Made by a program: the position numbers and the translations under genes. From positions 174,637 to 238,636 of the forward strand of contig CAVWMR010000004.1 of assembly GCA_963756175.1 (NCBI GenBank): a stretch of 64,000 nt of DNA, in the 5' to 3' direction. Under the pieces are notes generated by a model, which ran no database searches, was not told the origin of the DNA, and was given only the letters and a program-made list of their open reading frames with translations. Of this stretch, positions 61 to 61,795 are shown piece after piece; position 1 is the stretch's first letter; each line of letters opens with the position of its first letter. Source of the DNA: an uncultured Alphaproteobacteria bacterium. Lineage in GTDB: Bacteria > Pseudomonadota > Alphaproteobacteria > Rhizobiales > Hyphomicrobiaceae.

Positions 61-3000
61 ATGACACCGACGACAACGCAACCGCACCTGCCTGACGGTG
101 ACGACGGGGGTTGGATCGGCGTCTTCATACGCCGTCCCGTTCTGACCGTGGTGATCAACCTGCTCATCATCGTCGCCGGCTACGCGGCACTACAGGGCAT
201 CGAAATCCGCGAATTACCCGACGTCGACCGTCCGGTGGTGACCGTGCGTGCGAGTTACGAAGGCGCGACGCCGCAGACGATGGACGCGCAGATCACCGCC
301 ATCATCGAGAGTGCGGTCTCGCGCGTTCAGGGTGTCAGCAGCATCTCGTCGACCTCGTCCTACGGGTCCAGCCGTGTGACGATCGAATTTTCGAGCAGCA
401 CCAAGCTCGAATCGGCCGCAATGGATGTGCGCGATGCGGTCGCCGGCATCCGCCGCCAGCTCCCTGCGGACATGAAGGACGAGCCGACGGTCGTGAAAGC
501 GGACTCCGACGCTTCGCCGATCATGCGTCTCGTCGATCGCTTCTGAAAAGCTCTCCGAGAACGAGCTCACCGATCTCGTCAACAACGTGATCGAGGATCG
601 TCTGGCGGCCGTCGAGGGCGTCGCGTCCGCTACATCTTATGGTCTGCGCGCGCGCACGATCGAGGTGCGCATCAATCAGGTGGCGCTGGCCGGACGGGGC
701 CTTGCGCTTTCGGACCTGATGACCGCGATCGGCAAGGCGTCCATCACCGGCCCCTCAGGCGCACTGGAAAATCCGACGCAGCAACTCCTCGTAAAAGCGG
801 AAGCACCGATCCAATCGCCCGAGGAGGTTGGCGCACTGCAGCTCAACTCGACCACCCGCGTATCGGACGTCGCGTTCGTCCGCTGGGCATTTCAGGACGC
901 GACGGCGATCACGCGTCTCGACGGCAAGACGGCCGTTGGCATGGAGATCATCCGTCAAGCGCAGTCGAATACGATCGGCATCTCGGATGGCGTTCGCGCC
1001 GCGATCGAGGAGCTGCGGCGTACGCTGCCGCCCGGCGTCGCGATCTCGATCGTCTCAGACGATGCCGTCTTCATCGAGGAGGCGGTGCGCGAAGTCGTGA
1101 TCAGCCTCATCATTGCCAGCGTCATCGTCATCATCGTCATCCTTCTGTTCCTCGCCTCGATGCACGCGACGGTCGCGCCGGCGCTCGCCATTCCGATCTC
1201 GCTGATCGGCACGCTCGCGGCGATCTGGTTCGCTGGCTTCTCGCTCAACATCCTGACGTTGCTGGCGCTTGTCGTCGCCACCGGCCTCGTCGTCGACGAT
1301 GCCATCATCGTCATCGAAAACATCGCCCGCCACCGCGCGATGGGCGTCGGCCCGCGCGCCGCCGCAGTCATCGGCACCCGCGAGATCGTGTTCGCCGTCC
1401 TGGCGACGACCGCCACGCTCGCCGCCGTGTTCGTCCCGATCTCGTTCATGCCGGGCATCGTCGGCAGCCTATTCTCCGAGTTCGGATTCGTGATGGCATT
1501 CTCGGTGACGGTATCGTCGTTCGTCGCGCTGACGCTCTGTCCGATGCTCGCCGCCAAGATCGGCACCGGCAATCATACCCCGAAGGAAACACCGGGCCGG
1601 TTCGACCGCTTCGCTAATTCGCTCGCCAGCTTCTACGCGCGCACGCTCGACTGGTGTCTCAAGTTTCGCTGGATCTTCGTCGCCATCTGCCTCGCATTCG
1701 GCGGGGTCGCGGCCGCCCTATTCCAGTTCGTCCCGAGTGAAATCACACCGACCGAAGACCGCAGCGTCATCAACATCAGCCTCAGCACCCAGCAGGGCAG
1801 CAACCTCGACTACATCTCGCACAAGATCGAACCGGTTGAGGCTGCCCTCGCGGAGCTCAAGAAAAAGGGCGAAGTGACCGACGTCCTGACCACCGTCGGT
1901 CGCGGCAGCACCAATCGTGCCTTCATCGTCGCGCCGCTTGCGCACTGGAACCAACGCACCCGCAGCCAGCAGGAGATCCAGGCCGAGCTGCAAGCCAAGC
2001 TCTCGAATATCGCCGGACTATCGATTTCGACGAGGACGCCGAACAGCCTCGGCATTCGAGGTGGCGGTCAGGGCTTGCGCTTCGCCGTCACCGGGACTGA
2101 CTACGCCAAGATCGCTGACGGTGCGACGGCGCTCGCCCAGCGGCTGTCACAGACTCCCGGCTTCCGCGGCGCTCGCACCGACTTCGACACGACGCAACCG
2201 CAGCTTTCGGTCCGCATCGATCGCGAGGCGGCGACCAAGCTCGGCGTGGCGATCGAGGCCATCACGAGCCTGATCAATACGATGGTCGACTACTCGAAAG
2301 CCGCCGATCTCTTCATCGGCGAAGAGATCGTCGAGATCCAGGTCAAGCCCGGCGGCCGCCCGATCGACGATCCGTCCGACCTCAAGAACCTGTTCGTGAA
2401 AACCGGCAACGGCAGCTTCGTCGCGCTCTCGACATTCGTCAAGATGGAGGAGGTGTCGATTTCGCCGACGCTCGCCCGCGAGGGCCGCCGGCGTGCGGTG
2501 CCTGTGAGCGCGCAGCTTGCAGACGGCACCTATCTCAGCGACGCCATCACGACGCTGCGCAAGGTCGCGCCGGAAGTGCTCGGCCCGGGCATGTCGATTA
2601 CGCTGCTCGGCGAAGCCAAGACGCTGACCGAGACGACCCAGAGCACCACGTTCGTTTTCGCCGTCGCCTTTCTGATCGTGTTTCTCGTGCTCGCGGCTCA
2701 GTTCGAAAGCGTGATCAGCGCGCTGGTCATCATGGTGACGGTGCCGTTTGGCCTCGCGGCCGCGGTTTTCGCCATTCTGCTCTCGGGAGGGTCGCTGAAC
2801 GTCTACAGCCAGATCGGTCTCGTACTGCTCGTCGGCGTCATGGCCAAGAACGGCATCCTTATGGTCGAGTTCGCCGACCAGCGCCGCGACGAGGGCAGCA
2901 GCGTGCCTGATGCCATCCGCGAAGCCGCGACCACGCGATTGCGGCCGGTTATGATGACCGCCCTGGCCGCTGTCGTCGGCGCCTTCCCGCTCGTCATCGC

Positions 3001-3196
3001 CAGCGGCGCGGGTGCCGAGGCCCGGCTCGCCCTTGGCTGGGTAATCATCGGCGGGCTCGGGTTCGCGACCGTGTTCACGCTGTACCTGGTCCCCGTCGCG
3101 TACCGCATCCTGGCGCCGCTATCCAAGCCGCGGGCTCACGAGACGCAAATCCTGATCGAGGAGTTGAAAGCAGCATCGCGGCCGCCGGCGGCCTAG
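61..3196 (+). pseudogene. RND (HAE1/AcrB-family) multidrug efflux permease, 5' end near the window start. A single-base frameshift near nt 543 splits it into ORFs 61..546 and 587..3196.
   Basis: The 161-aa and 869-aa ORFs together give a colinear AcrB-like sequence. The first ends ...ASPIMRLVDRF* and the +1 frame continues SEKLSENELTDLVNNVIEDRL..., with 12 TM-like hydrophobic segments and conserved HAE1 motifs (e.g. ATGLVVDDAIIVIENI, AKNGILMVEFA). The reading frame changes between nt 520 and 590. Confidence 0.8.
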
Positions 3197-3354
3197 CCGG
3201 TCGCATCATTCTGCAACGCGGAACGCGCCGCGCCGCCGGCTGCCCGCACGGTGCATTGCAATGTGCGCGCGGTGAGACTTCACGTTCCGTGGATCATGCG
3301 CTAACGTCTCGCTTTACGGACTTGTCCACTCTTTCAACGTGCGGAACGACACTC

Positions 3355-7793: not shown

Positions 7794-8988
7794 ATGTCCA
7801 ATACCAGCGCCACCTTGCCGCTCTCGCATATCCGCGTCCTCGATCTCACCGCGCACCGCGCCGGCCCGACCGCCGCACGCCAACTCGCCGATTGGGGGGC
7901 CAACGTCATCAAGATCGAGCCGCCAGCCGACAGCGACGTCGATCCCATGGGCGGCAAGCGCCACGGCTTCGATTTCCAGAACCTCCATCGCAACAAACGG
8001 TCGATGACGCTCAACCTCAAGAGCGCCGAGGGCAAAGCGATCTTCATGGCTTTGGCGAAGGACGCCGACGTCGTCGTCGAAAATTATCGCAGCGACGTGA
8101 AGCACCGTCTCGGCGTCGACTACGACAGCGTCGCGAAGGTCAACCCGCGCATCGTCTACGGCTCGATCTCCGGCTTCGGCCAGAACGGTCCCGACGCGAC
8201 GCGCCCCGGCGTCGACCAGATCGCGCAGGGCATGGGCGGACTGATGTCGATCACCGGCATTCCCGGCCAGGGACCGGTGCGGGTCGGGATACCCGATCGC
8301 AGATCTGACGTCGGGGCTCCTGCTTGCGCAGGCGATCATGCTGGCGCTGTACGAGCGCGAGCGTTCCGGCAAAGGCCAATGGGTGCACACGTCGCTGCTC
8401 GAAGCGCAAATCTTCATGCTCGACTTCCAGGCGTCGCGCTGGCTGATGAAGGGCGAGGTCGCCAAGCAGGCTGGCAACGATCATCCGACCAGCATCCCGA
8501 CCGGCGTCTTCCCGACCTCCGACGGCCACATCAATATCGCCGCATCCGGCGACAACCTGTGGAAGCGCTGCTGTGAAACGCTTGGCGCGCCGGAAATGCT
8601 GACCGACCCTGACTACGCAACCGGCGCCAAGCGCTCCGAGAACCGCAAGGCGCTCAATGAGCGGTTTGCCGCTCTGACCAGCACCAATACGTCGGCGCAT
8701 TGGATCGCGGCACTCAACAAGGCGGGCGTGCCATGCGGGCCGATCAATTCGATCGACAAGACGTTCGCCGAGCCACAGGTCAAGCACCTCGGAATCGCGC
8801 GCCGCATCCGCCACAGCAAACTCGGCGAGATCCGTGTCGTCGGCCAGCCGATCAATCTGTCGCGCTTTCCGCAGCCCGAGACGCTGGGCGCCACGCCCGA
8901 CCTCGGCGAGCACACCGGTGACGTCCTCGCCGATCTCGGCTACGGCGACGCCGACATCAAGGCACTGAAAGCCAAGGGCGTGATCTGA
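7794..8988 (+). pseudogene. CoA-transferase family III (CaiB/BaiF-type) protein, interrupted by a 1-nt insertion in a CCC run near nt 8297
   Basis: ATG at 7794 is preceded by GAGGAG. The N-terminal part (...GMGGLMSITGIPGQGPVRVGIP) continues in the +1 frame as IADLTSGLLLAQAIMLALYERERSGKGQW..., a typical family III signature. The extra C lies in ATACCCGATCGC. Confidence 0.8.
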
Positions 8989-8992
8989 TCCC

Positions 8993-10006
8993 TCAGTGAT
9001 ACCCCTCGCCGGGGCCGATCTTGCCGCGGAACATCCAATAGACGAACGCGGTGTAGCCGAGGATCATCGGCAGCAGGAACACGGTGCCGACCAGCAGGAA
9101 CATCTGGGAGGACGGCGCCGCCGCCGTATCCCAGAACGTCAGGTGCGGCGGCACCAGATAGGGTGCTGTCGAAATCACGAGGCCCGCATAGCCGAGCAGG
9201 AACAGCGCAATTGTGCCGAAGAACGGCAGGTTTTCGCGACCCTGCCGAAGCCAATGCCACACGCCGAAACCGATGAGCGCCGCCGCCAGCGGGATCGGCC
9301 ACAGAAAGTACAGGTTCGGCAGGCTGAACCAGCGCGCAGCGATGCGGTCGATCGTCAGCGGCGTCCACAGGCTGATCACGGCCATGGCGCCGAGCACCGC
9401 AAACAGCAAGATCGTTGCCCAGTGGCGGCCGAGTTCGCGTACCGGCCCTGTCGTCCGCATGATGAGCCACGTCGCACCGAGCAATCCGTACCCCGCAACC
9501 ACTGCAATACCGACGAACACCGCGAACGGCGTCAGCCAGTCGAACGCGCCGCCCGCATATTGCCGATCAACGACATTCACACCCTGAAGCAAGCCACCGA
9601 GGATGACGCCCTGTAGGAAAGCCGCGGTGATCGAGCCGCCGGCGAACGCAACATCCCACATGCGGTGCGACGGCTTCGCGACCCAGCGAAATTCGAACGA
9701 CACGCCGCGCAGGACGAGCGCCAGCAGCATCCCGATCACCGGCAGATAAAACGCCGGCATGATCACCGCGTAAGCGGTCGGAAACGCGACCCAAAGCCCG
9801 CCGCCGCCAAGCACCAGCCACGTCTCGTTGCCGTCCCAGAACGGTGCGACCGAGTTCATCATCACGTCGCGGTCTTCTTCCTCGCGCGTGAACGGAAACA
9901 GCACGCCGATGCCGAGGTCGAAGCCGTCCAGAATGACGTACATCGCGACGGCCGTCCCGATCAGTCCGGCCCAGATCAAAGGAAGATAGGGTTCCATCGC
10001 CGTCAT
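8993..10006 (-). CDS. cydB: Cytochrome bd-type ubiquinol oxidase subunit II
   Basis: 337-aa polytopic membrane protein (MEPYLPLIWAGLIGTAVAMYVILDGFDLGIGVL...). Its start overlaps the cydA stop. Confidence 0.85.
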   Translation of the reverse strand: MTAMEPYLPLIWAGLIGTAVAMYVILDGFDLGIGVLFPFTREEEDRDVMMNSVAPFWDGNETWLVLGGGGLWVAFPTAYAVIMPAFYLPVIGMLLALVLRGVSFEFRWVAKPSHRMWDVAFAGGSITAAFLQGVILGGLLQGVNVVDRQYAGGAFDWLTPFAVFVGIAVVAGYGLLGATWLIMRTTGPVRELGRHWATILLFAVLGAMAVISLWTPLTIDRIAARWFSLPNLYFLWPIPLAAALIGFGVWHWLRQGRENLPFFGTIALFLLGYAGLVISTAPYLVPPHLTFWDTAAAPSSQMFLLVGTVFLLPMILGYTAFVYWMFRGKIGPGEGYH

Positions 10007-11436
10007 CCTTTCGGTGGCGTGAGCGGACGGGCGCCGCTGCCCGGCCTGCGTCCGGTCGCCTCGCGTGCCGCTTCCTCGGCGGCGGAGAGCGGGCGGTTCG
10101 GGAGCCCCTGCGGCGCGGCTGTCGCCTCACCCTTTGGGCCGGCGTGGATCAGGCGGTTGATGTAATAGATGCCCATGCTGAAGACGATGCCATAAATGAA
10201 AACGAACAGCGCGAGCGTGCTGGCAACGCTGGCGCCAGGAACGGGCGACGTCGCATCCGCTGTTCGCAGCAGGCCCTGCACCACCCACGGCTGCCGCCCC
10301 TGCTCGGTGACGAACCATCCAGCGAGGATCGCGATGAAACCGAGCGGCCACATGTATGACGTCGAGCGCAGAAACCATCGGCTCTCGAACAGGCTGCCGC
10401 GCCACCACAGATACGCTCCCCAAAGCCCGACGACGATCAGCAGCATTCCGATCCCGACCATGATGCGGAACGAGAAAAACACGTTGGCGACCGGCGGCCA
10501 GTCGCTTTCGGGAAAATCCGTGAGACCCGGATACCGGCCCTCCCAGGAGTGGGTGAGTACCAGCGAGCCGACACCCGGCAGCGCGATCTGGAAGTGATTT
10601 TTGCGTGCCTTCTCGTCGGGAATGCCGAACAGCACGAGCGCACCCGGCTCTTTGCTGTTCCAGTGCCCTTCCATGGCCGCGACTTTGGCTGGCTGGTGCT
10701 TCAGTGTATTGAGCCCGTGCAGATCGCCTATGAAAAGTTGTAACGGCGCGACGATCGCGATCATGCCGACCGCCATCCGCAGCATCGTGCGGCTCTCCTC
10801 GACGTGGCGACCGTCGAGCAGATAGCGCGCGCCGACCGCAAGCACGACGACCGCCGTCGTCAGATACGCTGCGTTGAGCATATGAGCGAGGCGATAGGGA
10901 AAGCTCGGGTTGAAGATGATTTCCCACCAGCTCACGGGAAAGGCGATGCCGTTGCGGATTTCATGCCCGGTCGGCGTGTGCATCCAGCTATTGGCGGCGA
11001 GGATCCAGAACGCGCTCGTCGCGGTGCCGATCGCGACCAGCCCCGCCGCGAGCGTGATCAGCCACGGCGGAAAGCGATTCCAGCCGAACAGCAGAATGCC
11101 GAGAAACGTCGCCTCGAGATAGAATGCGGTCAAAACCTCGTAGCCGATCAACGGACCGATGACATTGCCGCTGAACTCGGAAAACCGGCTCCAATTGGTG
11201 CCGAACTGGTAGCTGAGCACGATGCCGGAGACCACGCCCATGGCGAACGAGACGGCAAAGATTTTGGTCCAGAACCGCGCGAGGCGATGAAATTTTTCGT
11301 TGTCGGTTCGCAGCCACAGCAGCAGCAGAACGGTGATGAACGCCGACAATCCGATCGTAAAGGCAGGAAAGATGATGTGGAAGGAAATGGTAAAAGCGAA
11401 CTGGATCCGGGCGAGCAGGACTGGATCGAATTCCAT
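10003..11436 (-). CDS. cydA: Cytochrome bd-type ubiquinol oxidase subunit I; short-Q-loop (CioA-like) form of about 477 aa
   Basis: Begins MEFDPVLLARIQFAFTISFHIIFPAFTIGL..., a canonical CydA N-terminus with the conserved His. Its length is below that of E. coli CydA, consistent with a cyanide-insensitive CioAB type. Confidence 0.85.
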   Translation of the reverse strand: MEFDPVLLARIQFAFTISFHIIFPAFTIGLSAFITVLLLLWLRTDNEKFHRLARFWTKIFAVSFAMGVVSGIVLSYQFGTNWSRFSEFSGNVIGPLIGYEVLTAFYLEATFLGILLFGWNRFPPWLITLAAGLVAIGTATSAFWILAANSWMHTPTGHEIRNGIAFPVSWWEIIFNPSFPYRLAHMLNAAYLTTAVVVLAVGARYLLDGRHVEESRTMLRMAVGMIAIVAPLQLFIGDLHGLNTLKHQPAKVAAMEGHWNSKEPGALVLFGIPDEKARKNHFQIALPGVGSLVLTHSWEGRYPGLTDFPESDWPPVANVFFSFRIMVGIGMLLIVVGLWGAYLWWRGSLFESRWFLRSTSYMWPLGFIAILAGWFVTEQGRQPWVVQGLLRTADATSPVPGASVASTLALFVFIYGIVFSMGIYYINRLIHAGPKGEATAAPQGLPNRPLSAAEEAAREATGRRPGSGARPLTPPKG

Positions 11437-11662
11437 CGGTGCCTCCAGACGATCGCGGCGCGGCCAAGGGCCGGTTCGCACACTGTAGGCTGTAAAGTTA
11501 TGAAGCGCGATGTCAACCCGCGCCCGATCGTCGCCGCGCGTTTGTGCCGCTCACGGAAAAGAGATCAACCGCCTCCAATCCAACGTTTGTACGCCGTGCT
11601 AGATACAGACTGTCACGGCGGCGGACGTTCGCCGGAAAATCTGGATCGGGGAGGTTATCTGA

Positions 11663-12325: not shown

Positions 12326-12338
12326 CGGGACGTCTGAT

Positions 12339-12375
12339 GTCGTTCGAACGCTCCGCCCCGCAACGGGCGGGGCGT
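12339..12375 (+). terminator. Rho-independent terminator downstream of the secreted-protein gene
   Basis: Stem GCCCCGC / loop AACGG / stem GCGGGGC, followed by GTTTCTATTT. Confidence 0.5.
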
Positions 12376-12377
12376 TT

Positions 12378-13922: not shown

Positions 13923-13931
13923 GCGTGCGAC

Positions 13932-46565: not shown

Positions 46566-46603
46566 CGAGGACGCGCGTCACAAGCGATTGGAAGTATCGA
46601 ATC

Positions 46604-47791: not shown

Positions 47792-47806
47792 CCGAGGCTC
47801 GAACGG

Positions 47807-51080: not shown

Positions 51081-51106
51081 TCACGGCGTTCTCAGGGAAA
51101 CCGATC

Positions 51107-51634: not shown

Positions 51635-51648
51635 GCGTCAGTCCCAGC

Positions 51649-53226
51649 ATGTCCGCAAGCGATCCGCCCCCCGTCGCACGTAGCAAGTCCGCCATCGGCC
51701 TCGCTCGGCGTTTAGAACGTGACGATCGCGGCGCGGCGCTGCTGCTGGCAACCGTGTTCATGCTGACGCTGCTGAGCGTCGTTGCCGTTGCCGTCGATTT
51801 TGGACAGGCGATGGTATTGAAGCAGAAGCTGCACAATGCCGCCGATGCTGCCGCCCTTGCCGTTGGATCGCGGCTCGATCTGACGGACACCGAGGCGAAC
51901 GCGCTCGCACAGAACTTCATCAAAGCCAACTATCCGGATCTGGCACTGGGCACGCTGACGCAGTTCACGGTCACGCCGACCAATGTCGGTTACAACGTCC
52001 GCGTCGCAGCCAGTCTTCCGACCACGTTTCTGCGCGTGCTGGGAACCGAGACGTTGCAGCTTGCCGTCACCGCCGAAGTCACGCGCGATCTGCGCAAACT
52101 CGAAGTCGTCCTGGCACTCGACAATACTGGATCGATGACCACCAACGATCGCATCGGCAAACTGAGACGCGCCGCGAACAGCCTTGTCGACATTCTCTTC
52201 GACGAAGCCGATGTTTCGCCTCACGTAAAGATCGGATTGGTGCCGTTCTCCGGTGCCGTCAACCTGGGCCTCGGCGCGCTTGGGCGCGGTTGGATCGACG
52301 AAAACGGCGCAAGCGCACTCAATCGCGAGGACGTCGCACTGCTGCCAACGCGGCCATCATTGCTGCAGCTTTTCCAATCCATGAACAACGTGCCCTGGGG
52401 CGGCTGCGTTCGCGCCCGCCTCGGCGGTCATGATCTCCTCGATACGCCCCCGAGCTTGGCGTCCCCCGAGACACTCTTCACGCCCTATTTCGCGCCTGAC
52501 GAGGCGGGCAACATTGTCGTCAATGGCAGCGGCAACAGCTATCTGATCGGCGACGGAACATTGCCCGCCCTGTATGCGCTGCAAGGCCTGACGGCTCCGC
52601 TCATCGCCAACGGCAACGGACCGAACTTCAACTGCGTGCAACGCCCGATCCAGCCCCTGACCAACGTCAGGCAGACGATCGCGGACGCCATCACCGCCAT
52701 GCAGCCGCGGGGCAGCACCGTAATTCCGGAAGGCCTTGCCTGGGCGTGGCGCGTGATCTCGCCCGGCTTACCCTACGATCAGGGCGCAGATTACAGCGAC
52801 AAGTCGGTGACCAAGGTCGTCATCCTACTTTCCGACGGTCGCAACCAGGTAGAGCGCGGCGCGCCCTACAATTCCTTTTACTCGGCCTACGGTTTCGCCA
52901 CCAAGGGGCATATCGGCCGGACCGATGGGTCGCAAACGCGCCAGGTTCTCAACGCCAAAACCGCCGCCCTGTGCAACAACATCAAGGCTGACAAGGACGG
53001 AAACCCGTCCACGGACGACATCTTCGTCTACACGATCGCCCTCGAGATCAACACCGGCAACGCCGCCATCGATGCCGAAACCAAGAGCCTGCTCGAAGCG
53101 TGCGCTACCCCCGCGGCGCGCTGCCCCGGCCAGCAATGCTTCTACGATACGCCATCCAGCAACGAACTCGATCAGGTTTTCTCCAAGATCGCGATCGGAC
53201 TTGCCGGCTTGCGGATCGCGAAATAG
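51649..53226 (+). CDS. TadG-like pilus-associated protein with a TadE-like N-terminus and a VWA domain
   Basis: N-terminus ...RLERDDRGAALLLATVFMLTLLSVVAVAVDFGQ and MIDAS motif LALDNTGSMTTNDRIGKLRRAANSL. Confidence 0.7.
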   Translation: MSASDPPPVARSKSAIGLARRLERDDRGAALLLATVFMLTLLSVVAVAVDFGQAMVLKQKLHNAADAAALAVGSRLDLTDTEANALAQNFIKANYPDLALGTLTQFTVTPTNVGYNVRVAASLPTTFLRVLGTETLQLAVTAEVTRDLRKLEVVLALDNTGSMTTNDRIGKLRRAANSLVDILFDEADVSPHVKIGLVPFSGAVNLGLGALGRGWIDENGASALNREDVALLPTRPSLLQLFQSMNNVPWGGCVRARLGGHDLLDTPPSLASPETLFTPYFAPDEAGNIVVNGSGNSYLIGDGTLPALYALQGLTAPLIANGNGPNFNCVQRPIQPLTNVRQTIADAITAMQPRGSTVIPEGLAWAWRVISPGLPYDQGADYSDKSVTKVVILLSDGRNQVERGAPYNSFYSAYGFATKGHIGRTDGSQTRQVLNAKTAALCNNIKADKDGNPSTDDIFVYTIALEINTGNAAIDAETKSLLEACATPAARCPGQQCFYDTPSSNELDQVFSKIAIGLAGLRIAK

Positions 53227-53249
53227 GTACCACCCGGAGCGTTCTTACG

Positions 53250-53774
53250 ATGTCGAGTATCGAAATCAGTGCGGCGACCTTGACGTGCGTGCAGGCCGCA
53301 TTCGTGTTCTGCGTCTGCTACGCGATCGTCTCGGATTTCACTCGGCTGAGGATCGCGAACTGGATACCAGCGACACTGACGGTGCTGTTTCTCGTCTACG
53401 CCGTCCTCAGGCTCGACGTCTCCACATTCAAGGATCACCTGATGCTCGCGGGGATCGTCTTCGTGGCGGGTTTCGTCTCGTTCGTTCTCGGATGGATCGG
53501 CGGCGGCGATGTCAAGCTGCTGACCGCGCTGACACTTTGGGCGGGGCCCAGCTACGGCCCTGATTTGCTCATCATGACCACACTCGGCGGCGGGCTCATG
53601 GCCTTCGCGCTGCTCCTGTTGCGCAACAGCGCTCAAGCGCGAATGCTGATGCCGACCGCGGCACCATTCAGGCGCATCCGCAGTTTCGCGGAGCGCGGTG
53701 TGTGTCCCTACGGTCTGGCTATGGGAGCCGCGGCGCTCGTGTCGCTGCAGCCGATGTTCATGCCCGCCACCTGA
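53250..53774 (+). CDS. cpaA: Prepilin peptidase CpaA (A24 family)
   Basis: Polytopic membrane protein with ...GWIGGGDVKLLTAL... (the catalytic Asp motif). Confidence 0.75.
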   Translation: MSSIEISAATLTCVQAAFVFCVCYAIVSDFTRLRIANWIPATLTVLFLVYAVLRLDVSTFKDHLMLAGIVFVAGFVSFVLGWIGGGDVKLLTALTLWAGPSYGPDLLIMTTLGGGLMAFALLLLRNSAQARMLMPTAAPFRRIRSFAERGVCPYGLAMGAAALVSLQPMFMPAT

Positions 53775-53827
53775 CCCTGGACTGAAAACACCTCCACAGA
53801 TGGTGTTTCGAGAATTTGCGCGCGCGG

Positions 53828-56275
53828 TCAGGTTTTGACCCGCAAATTGTTCGGGTCATAGAAGCCACGAAGCTGAACCTCAGCCGCGAGCCGCTCACCC
53901 GCCACCTCAATCTCGTATCGACCGCCGCGTACAAAATCCGCGTCCGCCAGCCCCGATGCGCACTCGATGTAGCCCATACCGAGCGGGCGCCCCACCGTAT
54001 GTCCGAACATGCCGGACGTGATGCGTCCGACAAGCTCGCCGTCACGCCAGATTGGCTCATTGTGGTAGAGCAGCGCGTTCGACTCGGTCAATGCCGCTTG
54101 GACCAGACGTCGACGAAGGCCTTTCTCTCGCTGTCGGAGCAGCGCGTCGCGGCCGATGAACGGCGCCTTTTTATTCGAGGCTACGGCGAATCCCAGCCCG
54201 GCATCGAGTGGCGTATCCTCGTCGGTAATGTCATGCCCCCAGTGACGGTATCCCTTCTCCATCCTGAGAGAATTCATCGCGTGATAGCCCGCCAGCGCAA
54301 GTTCGGCCGATGCGCCGGTCTCGGCGATCGCATCGAACACGCCCTGAGCGAATTCGGTCGGAATATAAAGTTCCCAGCCGAGCTCGCCGACATAGGTGAT
54401 GCGGCTCGCACGTACGCGCGCATACGCCAAGTCAATCACCTGCGACGTCGCGAAGGGGAAGGCGTCATTGGAAACGTCGGTATCGGTCAGTTGCGACAGC
54501 AGCTCTCGCGACCGCGGCCCCATCAGCCCAAGCACAGCATAGCCCGACGTGACGTCGAAAGCGACGGCGCGCGCGTCGTTTGGAATATGCCTTTGTAGCC
54601 ACGCGAAATCGCGAGTCGAGGACGCCGCCGACGTCACGATGAGGAAGCGCGTCTCACTTTCGCGCGTCACAGTCAGGTCCGCTTCGATGCCGCCGCGGTC
54701 GTTGAGCCACTGCGTATAGACGACGCGGCCGACCGGCACCGCCACGTCATTGGCACAGATCCGATCGAGGATCGCTTCGGCCTCCGACCCTTCAAGAACG
54801 AACTTGCCGAACGAGGATTGATCAAAAAGACCCACGCGCTCCCGCACGGCTTTATGCTCCTCGGCGGAGTGGGCGAACCAATTCTGGCGGCCGTAGCTGT
54901 ACTCGTAGGCCGGCGACACTCCCGGCGGAGCAAACCAGTTCGCGCGTTCCCAGCCGGCGGTTTCGCCAAAGCACGCGCCGCGCGCGGCAAGCCGATCATG
55001 CAGCGCCGACTTGCGCACGCCACGCGAGCTCTCTGGCTGACGAAAGGGCCAATGCATGGCGTAAAGCAGACCGAGGACCTCAACGGTGCGATCCTTGAGA
55101 TATTTCCGGTTGCGTTGAAACGGTATCATGCGGCGGATATCGACATCTGAAAGGTCCATCGGCGGATGGCCGTCGATGATCCAATCGGCCAACACCTTGC
55201 CCGCACCGCCTGCTGATTGAATGCCGATCGAGTTGAACCCCGCGGCAACGAATAGCCTTCGGATCTCGGGCGACTCGCCGAGCAGGTACCTGTTGTCCGG
55301 CGTAAAGCTCTCCGGACCGTTGAAGAAGAGCTGGATCCCAGCGCCGCCGAGAGCCGGTACGCGCTTTATGGCCGCCTCCAGCAGTGGTTCGATGTGCTCG
55401 AGGTCGTCCGGCAGCGAGTCGAAGGCAAAGCTCTCCGGAATGCCGTCCATGCCCCAGGGCTTCGCTTTCGGTTCGAACCAGCCGACGAGCAGTTTCCCCG
55501 CATCCTCCTTGACGTAGGTACATGCGTCGGCGTCGCGCAGCACCGGCAGATGGCGTGGCAGTCCAGGAATGGCCTCGGTGACGACATAGAAATGTTCGGC
55601 CGCATGGAGCGGAATACTCACGCCAGCCTGCTTGCCAAGTTCGTGTGCCCACATGCCCGCGCAGTTGACGACGTACTCGGCTTCGACATCGCCTTCGGCC
55701 GTGCGCACACCCGTTGCGCGTCCCTTGGAGACGAGGATTTCCGAGACCTTCACATTCTCAAAAATTTGCGCGCCGCGGCTGCGCGCGCCTTTAGCCAGCG
55801 CCTGCGTCGTATCGATGGGATTGGTCTGGCCATCTCGCGGTAGATGGACGGCGCCGAGCAGCCCCTCCGTACTCATGAGTGGCCACAATTCCTTCGCCTG
55901 AGCAGGCGTGAGAACACTTGCCTCGAGGCCGAAGCACCGCGCCATCGACGCGCCGCGCTTGAGTTCTTCGAGCCGCCCTTCGCTGGCGGCCAGCGCCAGA
56001 GAACCGATCTGGCGAAAGCCCGTGGCTTGCCCGGTCTCCTTCTCCAGCGTGGCGTAGAGTTCCGTCGTGTATTGCGCGAGGCGCGTCAGGTTATGGGTCG
56101 CGCGAAGCTGACCGACAAGACCCGCCGCATGCCACGTCGTCCCAGACGTGAGCTGCTTGCGCTCCAGCAGCACCACGTCCGTCCAACCGCGAAGCGTCAA
56201 ATGATAGGCGATGCTGCAGCCGACGATGCCGCCACCGACAATGACGACCTGTGCCCTCTCGGGGATGCTGGCCAA
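53828..56275 (-). CDS. Sarcosine/dimethylglycine dehydrogenase-family protein (FAD oxidoreductase fused to a GcvT-like aminomethyltransferase/folate-binding domain)
   Basis: 815 aa. N-terminal VVIVGGGIVGCSIAYHL (FAD GxGxxG) and a C-terminal GcvT domain. Intact. Confidence 0.85.
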   Translation of the reverse strand: MASIPERAQVVIVGGGIVGCSIAYHLTLRGWTDVVLLERKQLTSGTTWHAAGLVGQLRATHNLTRLAQYTTELYATLEKETGQATGFRQIGSLALAASEGRLEELKRGASMARCFGLEASVLTPAQAKELWPLMSTEGLLGAVHLPRDGQTNPIDTTQALAKGARSRGAQIFENVKVSEILVSKGRATGVRTAEGDVEAEYVVNCAGMWAHELGKQAGVSIPLHAAEHFYVVTEAIPGLPRHLPVLRDADACTYVKEDAGKLLVGWFEPKAKPWGMDGIPESFAFDSLPDDLEHIEPLLEAAIKRVPALGGAGIQLFFNGPESFTPDNRYLLGESPEIRRLFVAAGFNSIGIQSAGGAGKVLADWIIDGHPPMDLSDVDIRRMIPFQRNRKYLKDRTVEVLGLLYAMHWPFRQPESSRGVRKSALHDRLAARGACFGETAGWERANWFAPPGVSPAYEYSYGRQNWFAHSAEEHKAVRERVGLFDQSSFGKFVLEGSEAEAILDRICANDVAVPVGRVVYTQWLNDRGGIEADLTVTRESETRFLIVTSAASSTRDFAWLQRHIPNDARAVAFDVTSGYAVLGLMGPRSRELLSQLTDTDVSNDAFPFATSQVIDLAYARVRASRITYVGELGWELYIPTEFAQGVFDAIAETGASAELALAGYHAMNSLRMEKGYRHWGHDITDEDTPLDAGLGFAVASNKKAPFIGRDALLRQREKGLRRRLVQAALTESNALLYHNEPIWRDGELVGRITSGMFGHTVGRPLGMGYIECASGLADADFVRGGRYEIEVAGERLAAEVQLRGFYDPNNLRVKT

Positions 56276-56335
56276 GTGACCCTCCTAAGACATCGTCGCC
56301 ATGATCAACAGCGACATCGACGGTGATACGCTTGC

Positions 56336-57622
56336 CTACACCTGCAAATAATCGCGTATGCGGCCGTAGGTGATGCGCGCAAAAACGCCCGCCCGCCATA
56401 GGCCGTGGAAGGGAATGCTCTTCAACTCGGTCACGGGCATGTTCATCTCGGCCGACGCGCCGCCGATGAGACGGCGCGCCAGTTCAGGCCCCATCGCCGT
56501 GCTCATGGCGACGCCGCGTCCGTTGTAGCCGAGGCAGACCAACGCCCCTTCAGCCGGTTCGTGGATGTGAGGATAATGATCGGTGGTGACTGCGATCTGA
56601 CCGTTCCAGCCGTGCGTGAACCTGAACGGCTTGAGCTGCGGCCAGAGCCGTTGCGCGTACCGGATCAGAAACTTCATTTCGTCGGGGCTCGACACGGGAC
56701 GCTGCCGGCAGCGACCACCGATCAACAGGCGGTTCTGCTCATCGAGCCGATAGTAGACCGTCACCTGACCGAGTTCGTAGAGCGACGATCGGATCGGCAG
56801 AATCTTGCGTGCAATCTCTTCCGGAATGGGCTCGGTGGCGACGATGCCGCTGTAAACCGGCACGATGGTACGCTTCAGTCCCGGCCATAGACCGTCGGTA
56901 TAGCCGTTGGTCGCGAACACGATCTTCTCAGCGGTAACGGTCCCGCTTCCGGTTTCAATGATCCAATGCCCGCCCTGGCGCGATACACGCTCCACTTTTG
57001 TCGCGCCATGTACTCTGGCGCCGGCCTGGACCGCCGCCTGTGCCAGACCGCGCGCATAGCCCAGCGGATTGACGTGTCCCCCACGGCGATCGAGCAGCGC
57101 GCACGTATATCGATCGGTACCGGTCGCTTCCTGCATCCGTGCGCGATCCAGCAATTCGACGGGCATATCGCGCTTCGCACCCTGCTCGTAACTCGTCTGT
57201 ATGCTTTGCGCGGCGGCTGGCGTGTAGGCGGCGCGCAATGTTCCCGTCTGTCGCGCCTCACATTGGATCTGATAGCGCTTGACCAGGTCGAAAAGGACGT
57301 TGGGCGCATTCCACGACATATCGATCATGCGCCGACCTAAATCTTTGCCGAAATGAGCTTCGATCTCATCCGGATCGTGCTTTAAACCGGGATTGACCTG
57401 TCCACCGTTGCGACCCGACGCCCCCCATCCCGGCTCGTGAGCCTCGAGAACCGTGACATCGACGCTCTGCTCCGCCAGATGCAGCGCCGTCGAAAGCCCT
57501 GTGAATCCACCGCCGACAATCGCAACGGACACGCGCCTGCTGCCATCGAGCGGGGGCGTATCGGCGGCGGGACGCGCGCTCTCGGCGTAAATGCTCGGAG
57601 GAAGTGGCTCGGGTGTGCTCAT
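56336..57622 (-). CDS. FAD-dependent oxidoreductase (DAO family)
   Basis: VAIVGGGFTGLSTALHL..., 428 aa. Confidence 0.8.
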   Translation of the reverse strand: MSTPEPLPPSIYAESARPAADTPPLDGSRRVSVAIVGGGFTGLSTALHLAEQSVDVTVLEAHEPGWGASGRNGGQVNPGLKHDPDEIEAHFGKDLGRRMIDMSWNAPNVLFDLVKRYQIQCEARQTGTLRAAYTPAAAQSIQTSYEQGAKRDMPVELLDRARMQEATGTDRYTCALLDRRGGHVNPLGYARGLAQAAVQAGARVHGATKVERVSRQGGHWIIETGSGTVTAEKIVFATNGYTDGLWPGLKRTIVPVYSGIVATEPIPEEIARKILPIRSSLYELGQVTVYYRLDEQNRLLIGGRCRQRPVSSPDEMKFLIRYAQRLWPQLKPFRFTHGWNGQIAVTTDHYPHIHEPAEGALVCLGYNGRGVAMSTAMGPELARRLIGGASAEMNMPVTELKSIPFHGLWRAGVFARITYGRIRDYLQV

Positions 57623-57856
57623 GCGTCTTGATCCCTGGGGTCTAGGCGTCGGCTAGATTAGCGGCAACGGCGTTTGCGCCGCGAGAGCTTTCGTGTGCTC
57701 GGCGCGGATGTCGCACATCGCGCGCAGCAGAATATACGACCTACCAAAAAGCAGGCTTGATTTCACTCACATGAAATCCGAAAGTAGTGGGACGCCGGGC
57801 GACTGAAGTCGCCGTGAGCGCGTTCGTTCGACAAAGTAGGGGAAGGGTGGACGGTC

Positions 57857-58984
57857 ATGCGATCAAAGATTTTGCTGGGCTCGATCTGCGCGCTGGCATT
57901 CGCCGCAACCTCGGCCATGGCGGCTCGCGAATTCAACGGAAGCATCTGGTTCCCGGATACCCATCCGCTGACCAAGGCATATCTCGACTGGGTCAAGCGG
58001 CTCGATGCAGCTTCGAAGGGTGAGCTCAAGGCCAAGATTTTCACGGGCACGGCACTGCTGCCGCCCAATGCGCATCTTTCGGGGCTCAAGGACGGCATCG
58101 CGCAGGTCACGTATCACGCAGGAACGTATACGCCGACCGACCTGCCCGAAGACAACGTCGTGTCGATGCTGGCGCTCGGCTACTCCGACACGATGGCGCT
58201 CACGTTTGCGGTCACGGACTTCTACATGACCGATCCGGAGATGGTGGAGCGCTTCAAGCGGCATCGGATCGTGTTCGGCGGTGGCTATGCGACGCCGCCC
58301 TACATGCTGATGTGCACAAAGAAAGTCGCAACGCTCGCCGATCTCAAGGGCCTCAAGATCCGAATGCCGGGCGTCATCCATGCCGACTGGGCTAAATCGA
58401 TTGGCGCAGTGCCGGTGAGCGTCCCATCGAGCGAGATGTTCACGGGTCTTGAGAAAGGCCAGCTTGACTGCGCCGCCAACGCCGCAAACGACCTCAAGAG
58501 CCGTTCACTGTGGGATGTCGCCAAGCACACCAGCCAGATTTCGCTCGGTGTCTATTGGGCGGGCTGGCAGTGGGCCTTCAACGGCGGGTTCTGGAAGGAG
58601 CTGAAACCGAGCGAGCGGCGCATCCTGCTCGATACCATCGCCGACAGCATCCCGCCGATGGCACACGGCTACATGAAGGACTCAGATGACGCGATCGCCG
58701 AAGCCCCGTCCAAGGGCGTGACCGTCTACCCCGAGACGGACGAAATGCGCAAGTCGGTGCAAGAGTTCAATGCGAAAGTCGCCAGAGCACAGGCAATCGA
58801 GCAGGGCACGTCGAAGTTCAAGCTCAAGGACCCCGAAGGACTGATCAAGCGCTTCGAGGCAACGATCGCCAAGTGGGACGGACTGCTCAAGGGCGTCGAT
58901 CGGAAGGACGCGATCGCCCTCTCCAAGGTGCTGAAGGACAACCTCTACTCGAAGATCGACGTCAACACCTATGGCGTCTACTGA
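57857..58984 (+). CDS. dctP: TRAP transporter substrate-binding protein, DctP family
   Basis: Signal peptide MRSKILLGSICALAFAATSAMA; about 350 aa DctP-like. Confidence 0.8.
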   Translation: MRSKILLGSICALAFAATSAMAAREFNGSIWFPDTHPLTKAYLDWVKRLDAASKGELKAKIFTGTALLPPNAHLSGLKDGIAQVTYHAGTYTPTDLPEDNVVSMLALGYSDTMALTFAVTDFYMTDPEMVERFKRHRIVFGGGYATPPYMLMCTKKVATLADLKGLKIRMPGVIHADWAKSIGAVPVSVPSSEMFTGLEKGQLDCAANAANDLKSRSLWDVAKHTSQISLGVYWAGWQWAFNGGFWKELKPSERRILLDTIADSIPPMAHGYMKDSDDAIAEAPSKGVTVYPETDEMRKSVQEFNAKVARAQAIEQGTSKFKLKDPEGLIKRFEATIAKWDGLLKGVDRKDAIALSKVLKDNLYSKIDVNTYGVY

Positions 58985-59032
58985 CATCACCGCTGATCGG
59001 CCGGTGACGTCCGGCCGATCAGCGGTGTTACG

Positions 59033-59927
59033 TCACGCCCGGCCCTGCAGGACGGGATAAAGTTCAGGACGGCGCTGCTCCATCAACGGGTAGCGCCGTT
59101 TCACTTCGGCGATGAAGCCAAGGTCGATATGGGCGGTGACAAGCCCTTCCTCATCGGAGGCCGTCGCGACGACGGTTCCCCAGGGATCGACGACCATGCT
59201 GCGGCCGACGAACGCCAATCCGGATTTCGGTTCCTTGCCGTACTGACCAGCAGCGACAATGAAGCACTGGTTCTCACAAGCGCGAGCGCGCAAGAAGAAT
59301 TCCCAGTGATCGAAGCGCGGCGACAAGAACGCGGACGAGCAAGTCATGATCTCCGCGCCCTTCAACGCCAGTTCGCGGTAAAGCTCCGGAAACCTCAGAT
59401 CTGAGCAGATCGTCATGCCGATCCGCGCGAGATTGGTCTCCAAGACATCGACTGTCGCGCCCTTGCCAACCTTCGAGCTTTCGATGAAGCCAGGTGGAAT
59501 GTCGGCCCGATTGGGCGCATCGAACAGATGCGTTTTGCGATAGATGCCGAGGACGGCGCCATCAGGAGCGATCAGCGGCGACGTATTGTAGTAGGCATCC
59601 CCCGCGCTCTCGTACATCGAGCCTGACAAATACATTCCATACTTGCGCGCGCGCTCGCCGAGCGCCGCCGTGATCGGGCCCGGAATAGTCTCGGCGATTT
59701 CGCGATAGCCGGTCTCGTTCGAGAACTCGATGCCGGTCCACATTTCCGGGAGGACGCACAGATCACTGCCGCGCTCGCCGGCCTCGTCGACCAATCGAAA
59801 CAATTTCTCGACGTTGCTGCGACTTCTCGCCATCCACCGCAGTGATCTGTATCGCTGACACGACCAGCGTCCGGCGGCGATGGGATTCGGCCTGCGAAGT
59901 TGTCTTGTCCGTCATGTGCATTGTCCC
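59033..59927 (-). pseudogene. Carbon-nitrogen hydrolase (nitrilase-superfamily; carbamoylase/amidase-like), frameshift near nt 59830
   Basis: The true N-terminus MTDKTTSQAESHRRRTLVVSAIQITAVDGEKSQ is in a different frame from the 266-aa ORF (NVEKLFRLVDEAG...CVLPEMW...; catalytic Cys in MTICSDLRFPE). Confidence 0.65.
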
Positions 59928-59939: not shown

Positions 59940-61247
59940 CTACTTCATCAAGCTCGGCAGTATAAGCGTCAGCCAGGGAAAGGCGACAATCAGTATCAGC
60001 GTGATCATATCGGCGACGACGAACCACGTAATGCCACGGAAAATCGTCGACAGAGGAATCAATGATCCCAATGCACTCTTCATGACGTACACGTTCAGGC
60101 CGACCGGCGGCGTGACAAGGCCGATTTCGAGCAGCTTGACGAGGATGATGCCAAACCAGATGAGATCCGCGCCGACGGCCCGCGCGATCGGCATGACGAT
60201 CGGCATGGTCAGCAAGAGAATGCTGATCGAATTGAGGAAACAGCCGAGGATCAGATAGAGGACCACCACCATCAGGACGACGGTGAGCTGGTCACCGCCC
60301 ATGCCGAGCAGCCATTTGGAGATGACCTCCGGCACTCCCGTCAACGCCATCATCTTGCCGAGCAGCACCGTCCCGATCACGACCATGAAGATCGATGACG
60401 TGCCGGACAGCGCGCTGAGGCTCGCCTCCCGCAAAACCTTCCAGGTCAGCGTTCCCTTGATTGCGGCAAGCACGATCGCCAGTGCGGCGCCGACGGCTGC
60501 GCCCTCGGTCGGCGTGAAGAAGCCGACAAAAATCCCAACCAGGACGCTGATAATCAAAACAGGTAGCGGCCAAACGTCGGCAAACGCCGCCCGTCGCTCC
60601 TCGACTGTGAAATCCTCTGTCACTCGCGGCGCCAGCGACGGGTTGAGCTTGACCCGGATGATGATCATCGCCACGAACATCAATGCGGACATGATGCCGG
60701 GTATGAAACCGGCCATGAAGAGCTTGGCGATCGAGACGTCGGCAAAATAGCCGTAGAGCACCATCAGCAGGCTTGGCGGGATCATCGATCCTAGCGTGCC
60801 GGCCGACGCGATGACACCCGCCGCCAATCCCGGATCGTACTTGTACTTGAGCATCTCCGGCGTCGCGATCCGCGCCATCGCGGCCGAAACCGCGACCGAC
60901 GATCCGGAAGCCGCCGATAGAAACGCGCAGGCCGCAACGCTCGCTATGGCAAGGCCGCCCGGCAACCAGGACAGCATCACGCGCATGGCCTGGAACAGCC
61001 CCGCGGTGAGGCCGGCCGAGAATGCGATGTATCCCATGAGCAGGAACATCGGGATGGCCGTCAGATTCCAATCGCCGACGAAGTTGAACGGGATGGCGGT
61101 GACCATCCCCCATGCCGGCCGCCAACCGAGAATGGTCGCAATGCCGAAGAACGAGACGACACCGAGAGCGACGCCAATTTGAATTCGCAGTGCGATCAGA
61201 AGCACGCCTGCGCCGGTCGCCATCATGCCGATCGTGAACTTGTCCAT
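59940..61247 (-). CDS. dctM: TRAP transporter large permease DctM
   Basis: 435 aa, 12 TM, DctM-like. Confidence 0.85.
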   Translation of the reverse strand: MDKFTIGMMATGAGVLLIALRIQIGVALGVVSFFGIATILGWRPAWGMVTAIPFNFVGDWNLTAIPMFLLMGYIAFSAGLTAGLFQAMRVMLSWLPGGLAIASVAACAFLSAASGSSVAVSAAMARIATPEMLKYKYDPGLAAGVIASAGTLGSMIPPSLLMVLYGYFADVSIAKLFMAGFIPGIMSALMFVAMIIIRVKLNPSLAPRVTEDFTVEERRAAFADVWPLPVLIISVLVGIFVGFFTPTEGAAVGAALAIVLAAIKGTLTWKVLREASLSALSGTSSIFMVVIGTVLLGKMMALTGVPEVISKWLLGMGGDQLTVVLMVVVLYLILGCFLNSISILLLTMPIVMPIARAVGADLIWFGIILVKLLEIGLVTPPVGLNVYVMKSALGSLIPLSTIFRGITWFVVADMITLILIVAFPWLTLILPSLMK

Positions 61248-61257
61248 CGTGACCGCC

Positions 61258-61795
61258 TCAGTTCCGAGCCTGATTGGCCATGTCTGGCGACTCTGGAGAC
61301 GGATCGAATGCAGGATCGATCGCCGCCTTCCAGGCGTGCAGCGACACCTGGAGCAGCATCACAAAGAACCCGATCGGCAGAAGGAACTTGGCCGGCCACA
61401 CCGTGATGTAGATCGATGACATCAAGATCTCGCCGATCTCGTAGGCGGCCCAGGCGTCCTTGGCGGTCTGGTAGGTGAGAAGCGCGAAGAAGATTGCACA
61501 GACGACATACCCGACCACCATGAGGATACGCCGCAGGAGCAACAGGCAATCTTTCGACCAGCAGGTCCACCGTGATGTGCTCGTGCCGTCGCTCGACCAG
61601 TGCCAAGGGCAGGAACACCACCGCGACCATGTGATAGACGGAGACGATCTCGAGACTGCCTTCGATCGGCCGGCGGAAGAAGTTGCGCATGGCGACGTCG
61701 ACCACCATCTGCGCCATCATCAGGAACAGCGCGACGATGGCGATACCCATTAGAAGTCGTGCCAGGACGTCGGTCACGCGGTCGAGTGTCAACAT
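61258..61795 (-). pseudogene. dctQ: TRAP transporter small permease DctQ, frameshift near nt 61550
   Basis: N-terminal half (61795 to about 61550: MLTLDRVTDVLARLLMGIAIVALF...) and C-terminal half (61542..61258) are in different frames. Confidence 0.65.

Follow-up and report, generated by a model that had tools for sequence, protein, structure and literature searches.

The window, the whole 64,000-nucleotide stretch analysed here, lies on a contig of an uncultured member of the Hyphomicrobiaceae. It carries efflux, transport, hydrolase and cox accessory genes whose reading frames are interrupted by one-base events, together with two long stretches of intact genes (Table 1). Pfam supports the gene names of the initial annotation, giving flotillin, SGL with isochorismatase, UPF0261 (Tm-1-like), PEP_hydrolase, MBL, Amidohydro_2, CoxE, CoxM, CN_hydrolase and DctQ. 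The comparison set comprised 33 sister contigs from JGI, ENA/MGnify, Logan and an NCBI MAG, representing many samples. These contigs are 98–99% identical to the window and cover its positions 1–35.6 kb and 41.8–61.8 kb. The segment at 35.6–39.7 kb has no close sister and was compared by tblastn and blastn with 21 syntenic homologues (82–90% nucleotide identity). The population inhabits drinking-water biofilters, as judged from the metagenomes in which it occurs, and includes at least three haplotypes.

The alignments, with the tblastn and blastn comparison at 35.6–39.7 kb, confirmed a frame break in every gene for which one had been proposed. The phenomenon therefore stands, while the proposed count of about 30 was too low. 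The window differs from its sisters or homologues by 41 window-specific one-base events, made up of 39 insertions and 2 deletions. Seventeen genes contain 39 of these events as frameshifts in coding sequence, and the other 2 are intergenic (21447 and 59939). Every event is exactly 1 bp in size.

Table 1 Interrupted genes, intergenic events and event-free stretches in the window.
Feature	Positions	Strand	One-base events	Basis
RND efflux pump gene (1044 aa in sisters)	61–3196	+	extra C at 534	alignment to L011
CoA-transferase family III gene (397 aa)	7794–8988	+	extra A at 8291 (GAT[A]CCC)	base absent from 6/6 sisters (L011–L016)
SGL (gluconolactonase)-isochorismatase fusion gene (529 aa)	19828–21418	-	5: extra 19882, 20240, 20689; missing 20427, 20497	Pfam SGL and Isochorismatase on sister protein
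Intergenic T run	21441–21447	.	T7 in window, T6 in sisters	sole affected homopolymer run of at least 5 nt
Metallo-beta-lactamase-fold hydrolase gene (282 aa)	21485–22336	-	extra 21558, 21638, 22150	absent from all 6–8 sisters
Amidohydro_2 gene (300 aa)	22354–23257	-	extra 22710	absent from 8/8 sisters
coxE (VWA_CoxE, 365 aa)	23254–24352	-	net +1 at ~23926–23931	10/10 sisters one base shorter
coxM (268 aa)	28423–29230	-	extra T at 28679; nearby C7 run unaltered	absent from 7/7 sisters
Flotillin-like gene (925 aa, Band_7 and Flot)	30140–32923	-	extra 30211, 31018, 31313, 31708, 32384, 32594	sister alignment, Pfam
PEP_hydrolase gene (280 aa)	32956–33799	-	extra 33616	sister alignment, Pfam
ABC ATPase (livF-like)-UPF0261 (Tm-1-like) fusion gene (729 aa in sisters)	33796–35993 (start approximate)	-	8: extra 33991, 34499, 34634, 35069, 35118, 35249, 35448, ~35954	L001, L002, L193
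livG-like ABC ATPase gene	35986–36835	-	extra ~36370	21/21 homologues shorter
livM-like permease gene	36786–37921	-	extra ~36936, 37173, 37230	homologue comparison; frame reopens
livH-like permease gene	37866–38947	-	extra ~38392, 38630	homologue comparison; frame reopens
AraC-family regulator gene	39189–40111	-	extra ~39580, 39614	homologue comparison; frame reopens
CN_hydrolase gene (295 aa in sisters)	59033–59921	-	extra T at 59818	L017
Intergenic base between dctM and CN_hydrolase gene	59939–59939	.	extra G	sister alignment; dctM itself indel-free
dctQ (178 aa)	61258–61795	-	extra 61543	sister alignment, Pfam
Clean stretch: cydAB, 700-aa Mo-dehydrogenase, GST, others	8300–19500	.	no window-specific indel	3–6 sisters, gap-free
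Clean stretch: tad/cpa pilus locus, 815-aa dehydrogenase, DAO, dctP	41900–59800	.	no window-specific indel	L017–L032 gap-free; all genes intact

Several details of the initial annotation changed on alignment. The isochorismatase and gluconolactonase are indeed broken, but they form a single fused gene in the sisters rather than two genes. The MBL hydrolase has three events instead of two, and the six events in the flotillin-like gene agree with the earlier figure of at least five. The breaks assigned to the Tm-1-like, livF and araC genes hold, with the detail that livF and UPF0261 are fused and share eight events and that the araC gene has two. The site at ~35954 in this fusion was called from the 21 homologues, and the frame reopens once it is corrected. 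The extra base in the CoA-transferase gene is an A preceding the CCC run rather than an added C, and the C7 run of coxM (28660–28666), to which an indel had been ascribed, does not differ in length between the window and any sister. The net +1 of coxE falls in a small cluster of several neighbouring polymorphic bases. In the livG-like gene, tblastn with 4 homologues registers a frame step from -1 to -2. The extra T of the CN_hydrolase gene removes the N-terminus and leaves a 266-aa ORF, a product recorded only from the source contig of 277,585 bp.

None of the covering contigs in the 33-contig set carries any of the extra bases, and at 20427 and 20497 the sisters possess the base that the window lacks. 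Between 35.6 and 39.7 kb none of the 21 syntenic homologues has the extra bases, and the frame steps are all in the +1 direction. The lesions are unique to the source contig; sharing with close relatives or other samples was sought and not found. The initial annotation had proposed examining sister strains for intact copies and correcting the indels. The same genes are called full length in the independent assemblies, and removing 38 bases and adding 2 reopens all ORFs, so that each of the 17 affected genes reads through without an internal stop. After correction, premature stops number zero in 47 genes.

The events are strongly clustered, as had been claimed. The tests were run on the 39 events then in hand, of which 37 fall in three patches (19.9–23.9, 28.7–39.6 and 59.8–61.5 kb; ~17.1 kb in total), corresponding to 2.2 events per kb inside the patches versus 0.045 per kb elsewhere. 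On these 39 events the largest event-free gap is 20.2 kb versus 6.6 kb expected (P ~1e-5 by simulation), and the dispersion index is 2.7 (P ~2e-5). Event-free stretches of 11 and 18–20 kb lie within the window, and the intervals described as clean hold zero window-specific indels at 8.3–19.5 kb and 42–59.8 kb. Two isolated events, at 534 and 8291, fall outside the patches. None of the features measured, namely GC content, sequence motifs, the ends of sister contigs and the points of haplotype switching, accounts for the position of the patch boundaries. Indels at 19529–19782 are natural intergenic polymorphisms that vary among the sisters as well.

The initial annotation weighed error against a very recent, regionally concentrated pseudogenisation. 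With the events counted here, the latter would mean that some 40 one-base insertions inactivated accessory catabolic and transport operons. The affected genes do have accessory functions (a liv-type transporter, cox accessory genes and hydrolases), and the substitutions in the window reflect true divergence between strains. Most of them are synonymous and some are private, which marks the window as a distinct haplotype that could in principle carry private lesions. A contig with exactly the window's haplotype, which could contradict pseudogenisation directly, was not found among the independent assemblies; hence the insertions are not strictly separable from strain identity. However, equally divergent natural haplotypes show 0 coding indels. 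The pair L001 and L193 aligns with 0 gaps over 14,224 nt (98.2% identical) and the pair L017 and L025 with 0 gaps over 11,456 nt (98.3%), whereas the window compared with L193 over the same ~14.2 kb has 21 insertions.

Selection on the interrupted genes is not relaxed. Codon position 3 accounts for 82% of the differences from sisters in frameshifted genes and 80% in intact genes. The differing codons comprise 233 synonymous and 42 non-synonymous changes in frameshifted genes versus 397 and 83 in intact genes, and the window-private substitutions comprise 126 and 17 versus 114 and 27. The non-synonymous share is accordingly 15% versus 17% overall and 12% versus 19% among private changes, and about 85–88% of the substitutions in the apparently broken genes are synonymous, private ones included. 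Gene by gene, there are 39 synonymous and 7 non-synonymous codon differences in the RND efflux pump gene, 54 and 10 in the SGL-isochorismatase gene and 57 and 5 in the flotillin-like gene (all after correction and with zero stops), 20 and 1 in the CoA-transferase gene, and 7 and 0 in the metallo-beta-lactamase-fold gene. Neutral decay yielding 22 indels in 11 genes should bring about 100 or more non-synonymous substitutions. A non-synonymous excess was looked for in the disrupted genes and was not observed: single genes took up to eight independent hits without any rise in private non-synonymous changes. Nonsense mutations, indels of at least 2 bp, IS elements and larger deletions were also sought in the window and are all absent, and intergenic DNA within the patches is struck at a rate similar to that of the genes there. 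These observations, with the insertion-dominated spectrum described below, render genuine pseudogenisation very unlikely. A related reading holds that the insertions are real and arose in one strain by very recent, patchy +1 insertion mutagenesis, for example by error-prone repair or gap-filling synthesis over 2–11 kb tracts after recombination or DNA uptake. Such an event would have to be too recent for other decay to follow, and we regard it as highly improbable.

The indel spectrum comprises 39 insertions and 2 deletions (95% insertions). Of the resolvable insertions, 19 of 26 (~73%) differ from both neighbouring bases and 7 duplicate a neighbour; gap placement is unambiguous in contexts such as CAAC[T]AGC. 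Bacterial indel spectra favour deletions and repeat slippage, and an excess of insertions that are mostly not copies of a neighbour counts further against pseudogenisation. As a point against an error origin, the ratio of 39 to 2 exceeds that of any raw-read error profile that we can cite. The most enriched k-mer at the insertions is AGCAA (5 occurrences versus 0.6 expected, among many k-mers tested). Programmed frameshifting and phase-variable contingency loci were considered and rejected, as the sites share no common motif and the homologues are in a single frame.

The spectrum also bears on the mechanism first suggested, homopolymer-length miscalling as it occurs in 454, Ion Torrent or older nanopore data. 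Homopolymer indels are the classic residual nanopore error (PMC9262707), and the T run at 21441–21447 together with the seven neighbour-duplicating insertions is what such miscalls would leave. However, 62 of the 63 runs of at least 5 nt covered by sisters are equal in length, including 13 of the 14 inside the patches and the C7 run, most insertions match neither neighbour, and deletions are nearly absent. With two of the named homopolymer sites mislocated as well, this mechanism is extremely improbable.

A technical artefact of consensus building or polishing, rather than mutation in the organism, is very probably the origin of the frameshifts, as judged from sequence comparison, because no independent assembly has the extra bases, selection is unrelaxed, correction restores the frames and the spectrum is non-biological. 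This agrees with the preference for error over pseudogenisation expressed at the outset. In the three patches the consensus would have retained spurious single bases, approximately one per 450 bp, while the remainder of the window would have the indel accuracy of short reads. The patch consensus may have come from a lower-accuracy, insertion-prone source. Candidates are a long-read gap fill, a long-read consensus that was left unpolished or had low coverage, or a consensus caller retaining insertion-column bases where multi-strain reads pile up. For the sister contigs of a 2015 study, Illumina reads were assembled with IDBA-UD (PMC4863621); a long-read source would be incorrect if the window had the same origin.

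One form that such an artefact might take is a collapsed-strain consensus, in which haplotypes were merged and both alleles were kept side by side, or a multi-base polymorphism was misaligned, to give a net +1. Haplotype blocks form a mosaic in this population, and at 23926–23931 the window looks as if two sister haplotypes had been combined (GCACTTGG and GCGTGCGG yielding GCACTGCGG). A mismatch lies directly beside the insertions at 34634, 35118, 61543, 8291 and 59939, and an insertion-only, patchy pattern would follow naturally. Nonetheless, at most insertion sites the sisters are all free of polymorphism within 12 nt; the required second allele is not seen at most sites; insertions and haplotype switch points do not coincide; and clean regions, for example 46–59 kb, are equally polymorphic. 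Strain collapse is thus an unlikely, though not negligible, route to the consensus artefact.

Under the consensus artefact, 17 genes of the window risk annotation as pseudogenes or split ORFs though they are almost certainly intact in the organism. Among them are those for a complete liv-type ABC transporter, a flotillin, several hydrolases and an RND pump, as well as cox accessory genes and the TRAP gene dctQ. Once the indels are corrected, all 17 should be recorded as intact. Left uncorrected, the indels inflate pseudogene counts, create spurious protein families (the truncated CN_hydrolase is already present in public protein collections) and distort what is inferred about the pangenome and metabolism of this Hyphomicrobiaceae lineage from drinking water. 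Since the errors are patchy, good whole-genome quality scores are possible despite unreliable local stretches.

Genuine pseudogene accumulation is known from reductive genome evolution in host-restricted bacteria, and the window resembles it in having many frameshifted genes that are still similar to intact orthologues. Real pseudogenes, however, combine nonsense mutations with IS insertions and deletions of various lengths, evolve under relaxed selection and tend to be common to close relatives; the window has neither such mixed lesions nor relaxed selection nor sharing among close relatives. The homopolymer errors known from 454, Ion Torrent and nanopore R9 sequencing (PMC9262707) likewise place one-base frameshifting indels in assembled genomes, but they are defined by their homopolymer location, whereas here 1 of 63 runs is altered and 73% of insertions are non-copies. 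Residual indels in long-read and hybrid (meta)genome assemblies, whose gene-splitting effect the frameshift-correction tool proovframe addresses (bioRxiv 10.1101/2021.08.23.457338), differ from those described here, which are confined to three patches separated by error-free stretches of 11–20 kb, spare homopolymers and have an insertion to deletion ratio of ~20 to 1. Insertions also dominate raw PacBio continuous long reads, at ~8% versus 3% deletions and 2% substitutions (bioRxiv 10.1101/2021.08.23.457338). As in long-read and hybrid assemblies, single-base indels split conserved genes of which both halves still match homologues, and related proteins serve as the reference for correcting the frames.

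The window has a GC content of 60–69%, and at the species level the MAGs closest to it belong to Hyphomicrobiaceae. Independently assembled contigs of the same population, referred to here as sisters, were retrieved through exact-protein look-ups of intact window proteins. The resulting 33 contigs (L001–L032 and L193) originate from JGI, ENA/MGnify, Logan and one NCBI MAG, and the samples are granular-activated-carbon and drinking-water metagenomes and related samples. The oldest sister data set, from an Ann Arbor biofilter study, was sequenced on Illumina HiSeq, assembled with IDBA-UD and binned with CONCOCT; this 2015 paper covers only the Illumina/IDBA-UD sister assemblies (PMC4863621). The sisters are 97.9–99.3% identical to the window and their combined coverage comprises 1–35.6 kb and 41.8–61.8 kb. 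Exact-protein look-ups with CpaF and a 418-aa solute-binding protein gave no match, and when metagenome and genome collections were scanned with the latter, no relative exceeded 95% identity. Thus, the 35.6–41.8 kb stretch was judged from homologues at 82–90% identity. A search of a plasmid collection returned only homologues at or below 80% identity, useless for indel placement.

The initial annotation, based on the sequence alone, held that many genes are frame-broken in three blocks. A self-trained codon-usage Viterbi pass detected many same-strand frame switches in those regions, and both the direct DNA alignment with the sisters and the alignment with homologues upheld the claim. All gaps relative to the sisters are 1 bp, except for two intergenic differences, one of 2 bp at 41875 and one of 3 bases at 19.5–19.8 kb that is natural to L003, and the covering sisters are unanimous against the window at each event site. 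At 35.6–39.7 kb, where there is no close sister, tblastn with the proteins of four syntenic homologues revealed successive frame steps (−1, −2, −3, −1) in livF, livG, livM, livH and araC. The direction of the steps always corresponds to an extra base in the window, and nucleotide alignment with 21 homologues located these bases. The total is 41 events, 39 of them frameshifting across 17 genes and two intergenic, comprising 39 extra and two missing bases. A few of the coordinates first reported were corrected. The gene names agree with Pfam matches of the intact sister proteins, except that the "gluconolactonase" and "isochorismatase" are a single fusion gene, whose 529-aa product carries SMP-30/gluconolactonase (SGL) and isochorismatase domains in all sister contigs. 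A further suspected frameshift near the window's end was rejected, as it is a normal hyuA/hyuB gene boundary.

Coordinates of the events and of neighboring features in the window.
Feature	Window position (strand)	Sister position	Remark
First patch	19.8–24.0 kb
Second patch	28.6–39.7 kb
Third patch	59.8–61.6 kb		first base 59818
Missing bases	20427, 20497
Extra bases located with homologues	~35954, 36370, 36936, 37173, 37230, 38392, 38630, 39580, 39614
Intergenic events within patches	21447, 59939
Hypervariable intergenic segment	19529–19782		between a 239-aa gene and the SGL-isochorismatase gene; C6/C7 run at 19710–19716
2-bp difference from L028	41875		GGAGCC[CG]GGTCATG
hyuA/hyuB boundary	~63.5 kb		within the 61.8–64 kb end
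SGL-isochorismatase gene	19828–21418 (−)	L001:13807–15396	529 aa
Flotillin-like gene	30140–32923 (−)	L001:2315–5092	925 aa
livF-UPF0261 gene	33796–35993 (−)	L001:1–1443	729–764 aa
Defect in L005 (coxL)	26911–26930	L005:~2628–2711	NCBI MAG GCA_001464855.1, LNEA01000606.1
Ends of L018–L021	59721–59797		within 80 bp

The small indels of the hypervariable segment, including those in its C6/C7 run, are natural polymorphism, unlike the window-specific insertions, because the sisters also vary there. The 2-bp difference lies in the spacer between the ribosome-binding site and the tadE start codon, 5–7 nt before the latter; it is covered by one sister only, and both error and polymorphism are possible.

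The initial annotation preferred indel error to recent pseudogenization. Four independent lines (uniqueness, absence of decay, spectrum and reversibility) bear out this preference, and the events are not biological. Regarding uniqueness, the population contains at least three natural haplotypes (types L001, L193 and L009), ~2% apart, and the extra bases occur in none of them. L001 and L193 align without a gap over 14,224 nt (98.2% identity), as do L017 and L025 over 11,456 nt (98.3%), whereas the window aligned with L193 over the same 14.2 kb contains 21 one-base insertions. The extra bases were shown to be confined to this single assembly, where they behave as noise. Regarding decay, projection of the window onto the sister gene models with indels ignored yielded no premature stops in 47 genes. 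The third codon position takes 82% of the sister differences where genes are frameshifted and 80% where they are intact, and the ratios of synonymous to non-synonymous differing codons are 233:42 and 397:83, respectively. For private substitutions, defined as absent from all of at least three sisters, the respective ratios are 126:17 and 114:27. The substitution pattern and the lack of premature stops therefore indicate that purifying selection on these genes persisted to the very tip of the lineage leading to the window. A single gene nonetheless carries as many as six (flotillin) or eight (livF-UPF0261) events. In bacterial mutation spectra substitutions are about tenfold commoner than indels, and neutral decay that produced the 22 indels of the 11 sister-covered genes should have added about a hundred or more non-synonymous changes.

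The spectrum is equally atypical of mutation. Insertions outnumber deletions 39 to 2 (two-sided binomial, ~1e-9), the event size is exactly 1 bp throughout, and intergenic DNA within the patches is also affected. Replication slippage duplicates a neighboring base, whereas 19 of 26 unambiguous insertions are unlike either neighbor. Homopolymer indels, the example offered initially, do not account for the events, as only one of 63 sister-covered runs of 5 nt or longer is altered. Finally, deletion of 38 bases and restoration of two reopens all genes at sister or homologue length. Judged from these sequence comparisons, the verdict of artefact would leave only a slight residual doubt.

The events are strongly clustered. 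For 39 of the events, the largest event-free gap is 20.2 kb compared with 6.6 kb expected (simulation, P ~1e-5) and the dispersion index is 2.7 (P ~2e-5). All but two of these 39 fall within the 17.1 kb of the three patches, at a rate of 2.2 per kb vs 0.045 per kb elsewhere. The sister alignment shows no window-specific indels in the tad/cpa locus, the gene of the 815-aa dehydrogenase or the 8.3–19.5 kb stretch.

Several candidate causes of the patch boundaries were rejected. GC content fails, as the patches span the window's lowest (60%) to highest (69%) values. A k-mer test for a common motif at the insertion sites gave nothing convincing. The pentamer AGCAA or its complement occurs within 10 nt of five of 37 insertion sites (0.6 expected), including 36936, 38630 and 61543, and two of the sites have the common context GAGC[A]AG; with many k-mers tested, this amounts to a weak signal. 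Four independent short-read sister contigs (L018–L021) end just before the third patch, which may be coincidence; contig ends as a cause were dismissed, since they are equally frequent in clean regions. The density of window-private SNPs, a measure confounded by how many sisters cover a site, is raised in some patches (20–21.4 and 28–35 kb) and not in 21.4–24 kb.

The insertion error rate of ~0.2% in the patches, next to indel-perfect flanks, suggests that the contig consensus would combine two sources of unlike quality. Candidates for the poorer source are a long-read bridge or gap fill, a long-read consensus that was locally unpolished or of low coverage, and a consensus caller that retained the bases of insertion columns. 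Raw PacBio continuous long reads contain ~8% insertions, 3% deletions and 2% substitutions, and the insertion dominance of the events matches this profile (bioRxiv 10.1101/2021.08.23.457338). The events differ from classic nanopore and 454 errors, which are homopolymer-bound (PMC9262707).

A consensus that merged the reads of co-occurring haplotypes, keeping both alleles at some sites, is a plausible contributor to the artefact. It is favored by the mosaic of haplotype blocks in the population and by the coxE site, where the sequence resembles a blend of two sister haplotypes. However, most event sites have no nearby polymorphism and the haplotype switch points carry no insertions. A consensus in which the two alleles of a SNP were both kept is plausible for 23930 and a few sites that have a mismatch beside them, but most sites lend it no support, and the location of the insertions away from the switch points counts against chimeric junctions. 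The mosaic is apparent at 45800–59800, where nearly all window alleles are common to some sister among L017–L032 and none of these sisters matches the window throughout; it suggests either strong recombination within the population or metagenome contigs whose consensus is a chimera of strains.

The intact sister genes have features of their own. A livF-type ABC ATPase is fused to UPF0261 (Tm-1-like) in a two-domain protein, with the PEP_hydrolase gene directly after it and livG, livM, livH and a solute-binding protein gene upstream. Homologues at 82–90% identity (L037, L045, L050 and L071) preserve the fusion as well as the gene order, and the arrangement ties the little-understood Tm-1-like/PEP-hydrolase pair to an ABC importer of the branched-chain-amino-acid type. 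The flotillin-like protein is unusually long; between its Band_7/SPFH (residues 43–188) and Flot (762–878) domains, ~570 residues have no Pfam match. One sister, L005, has a defect in coxL where the alignment breaks, with 18 window bases absent and 11 locus bases aligned twice; it splits the gene into ORFs of 357 and 185 aa, while all other sisters have it intact (559 aa).

The frameshifts are not a biological feature, and the value of the finding is that it warns about annotation and quality in the contig and its genome bin. The events fail every defining test of genuine pseudogenes, homopolymer error, programmed frameshifting and phase variation. They represent the same known problem as the residual indels that split genes in genome and metagenome assemblies. 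However, they depart from the textbook case in that they are patchy, spare homopolymers and are almost all insertions.
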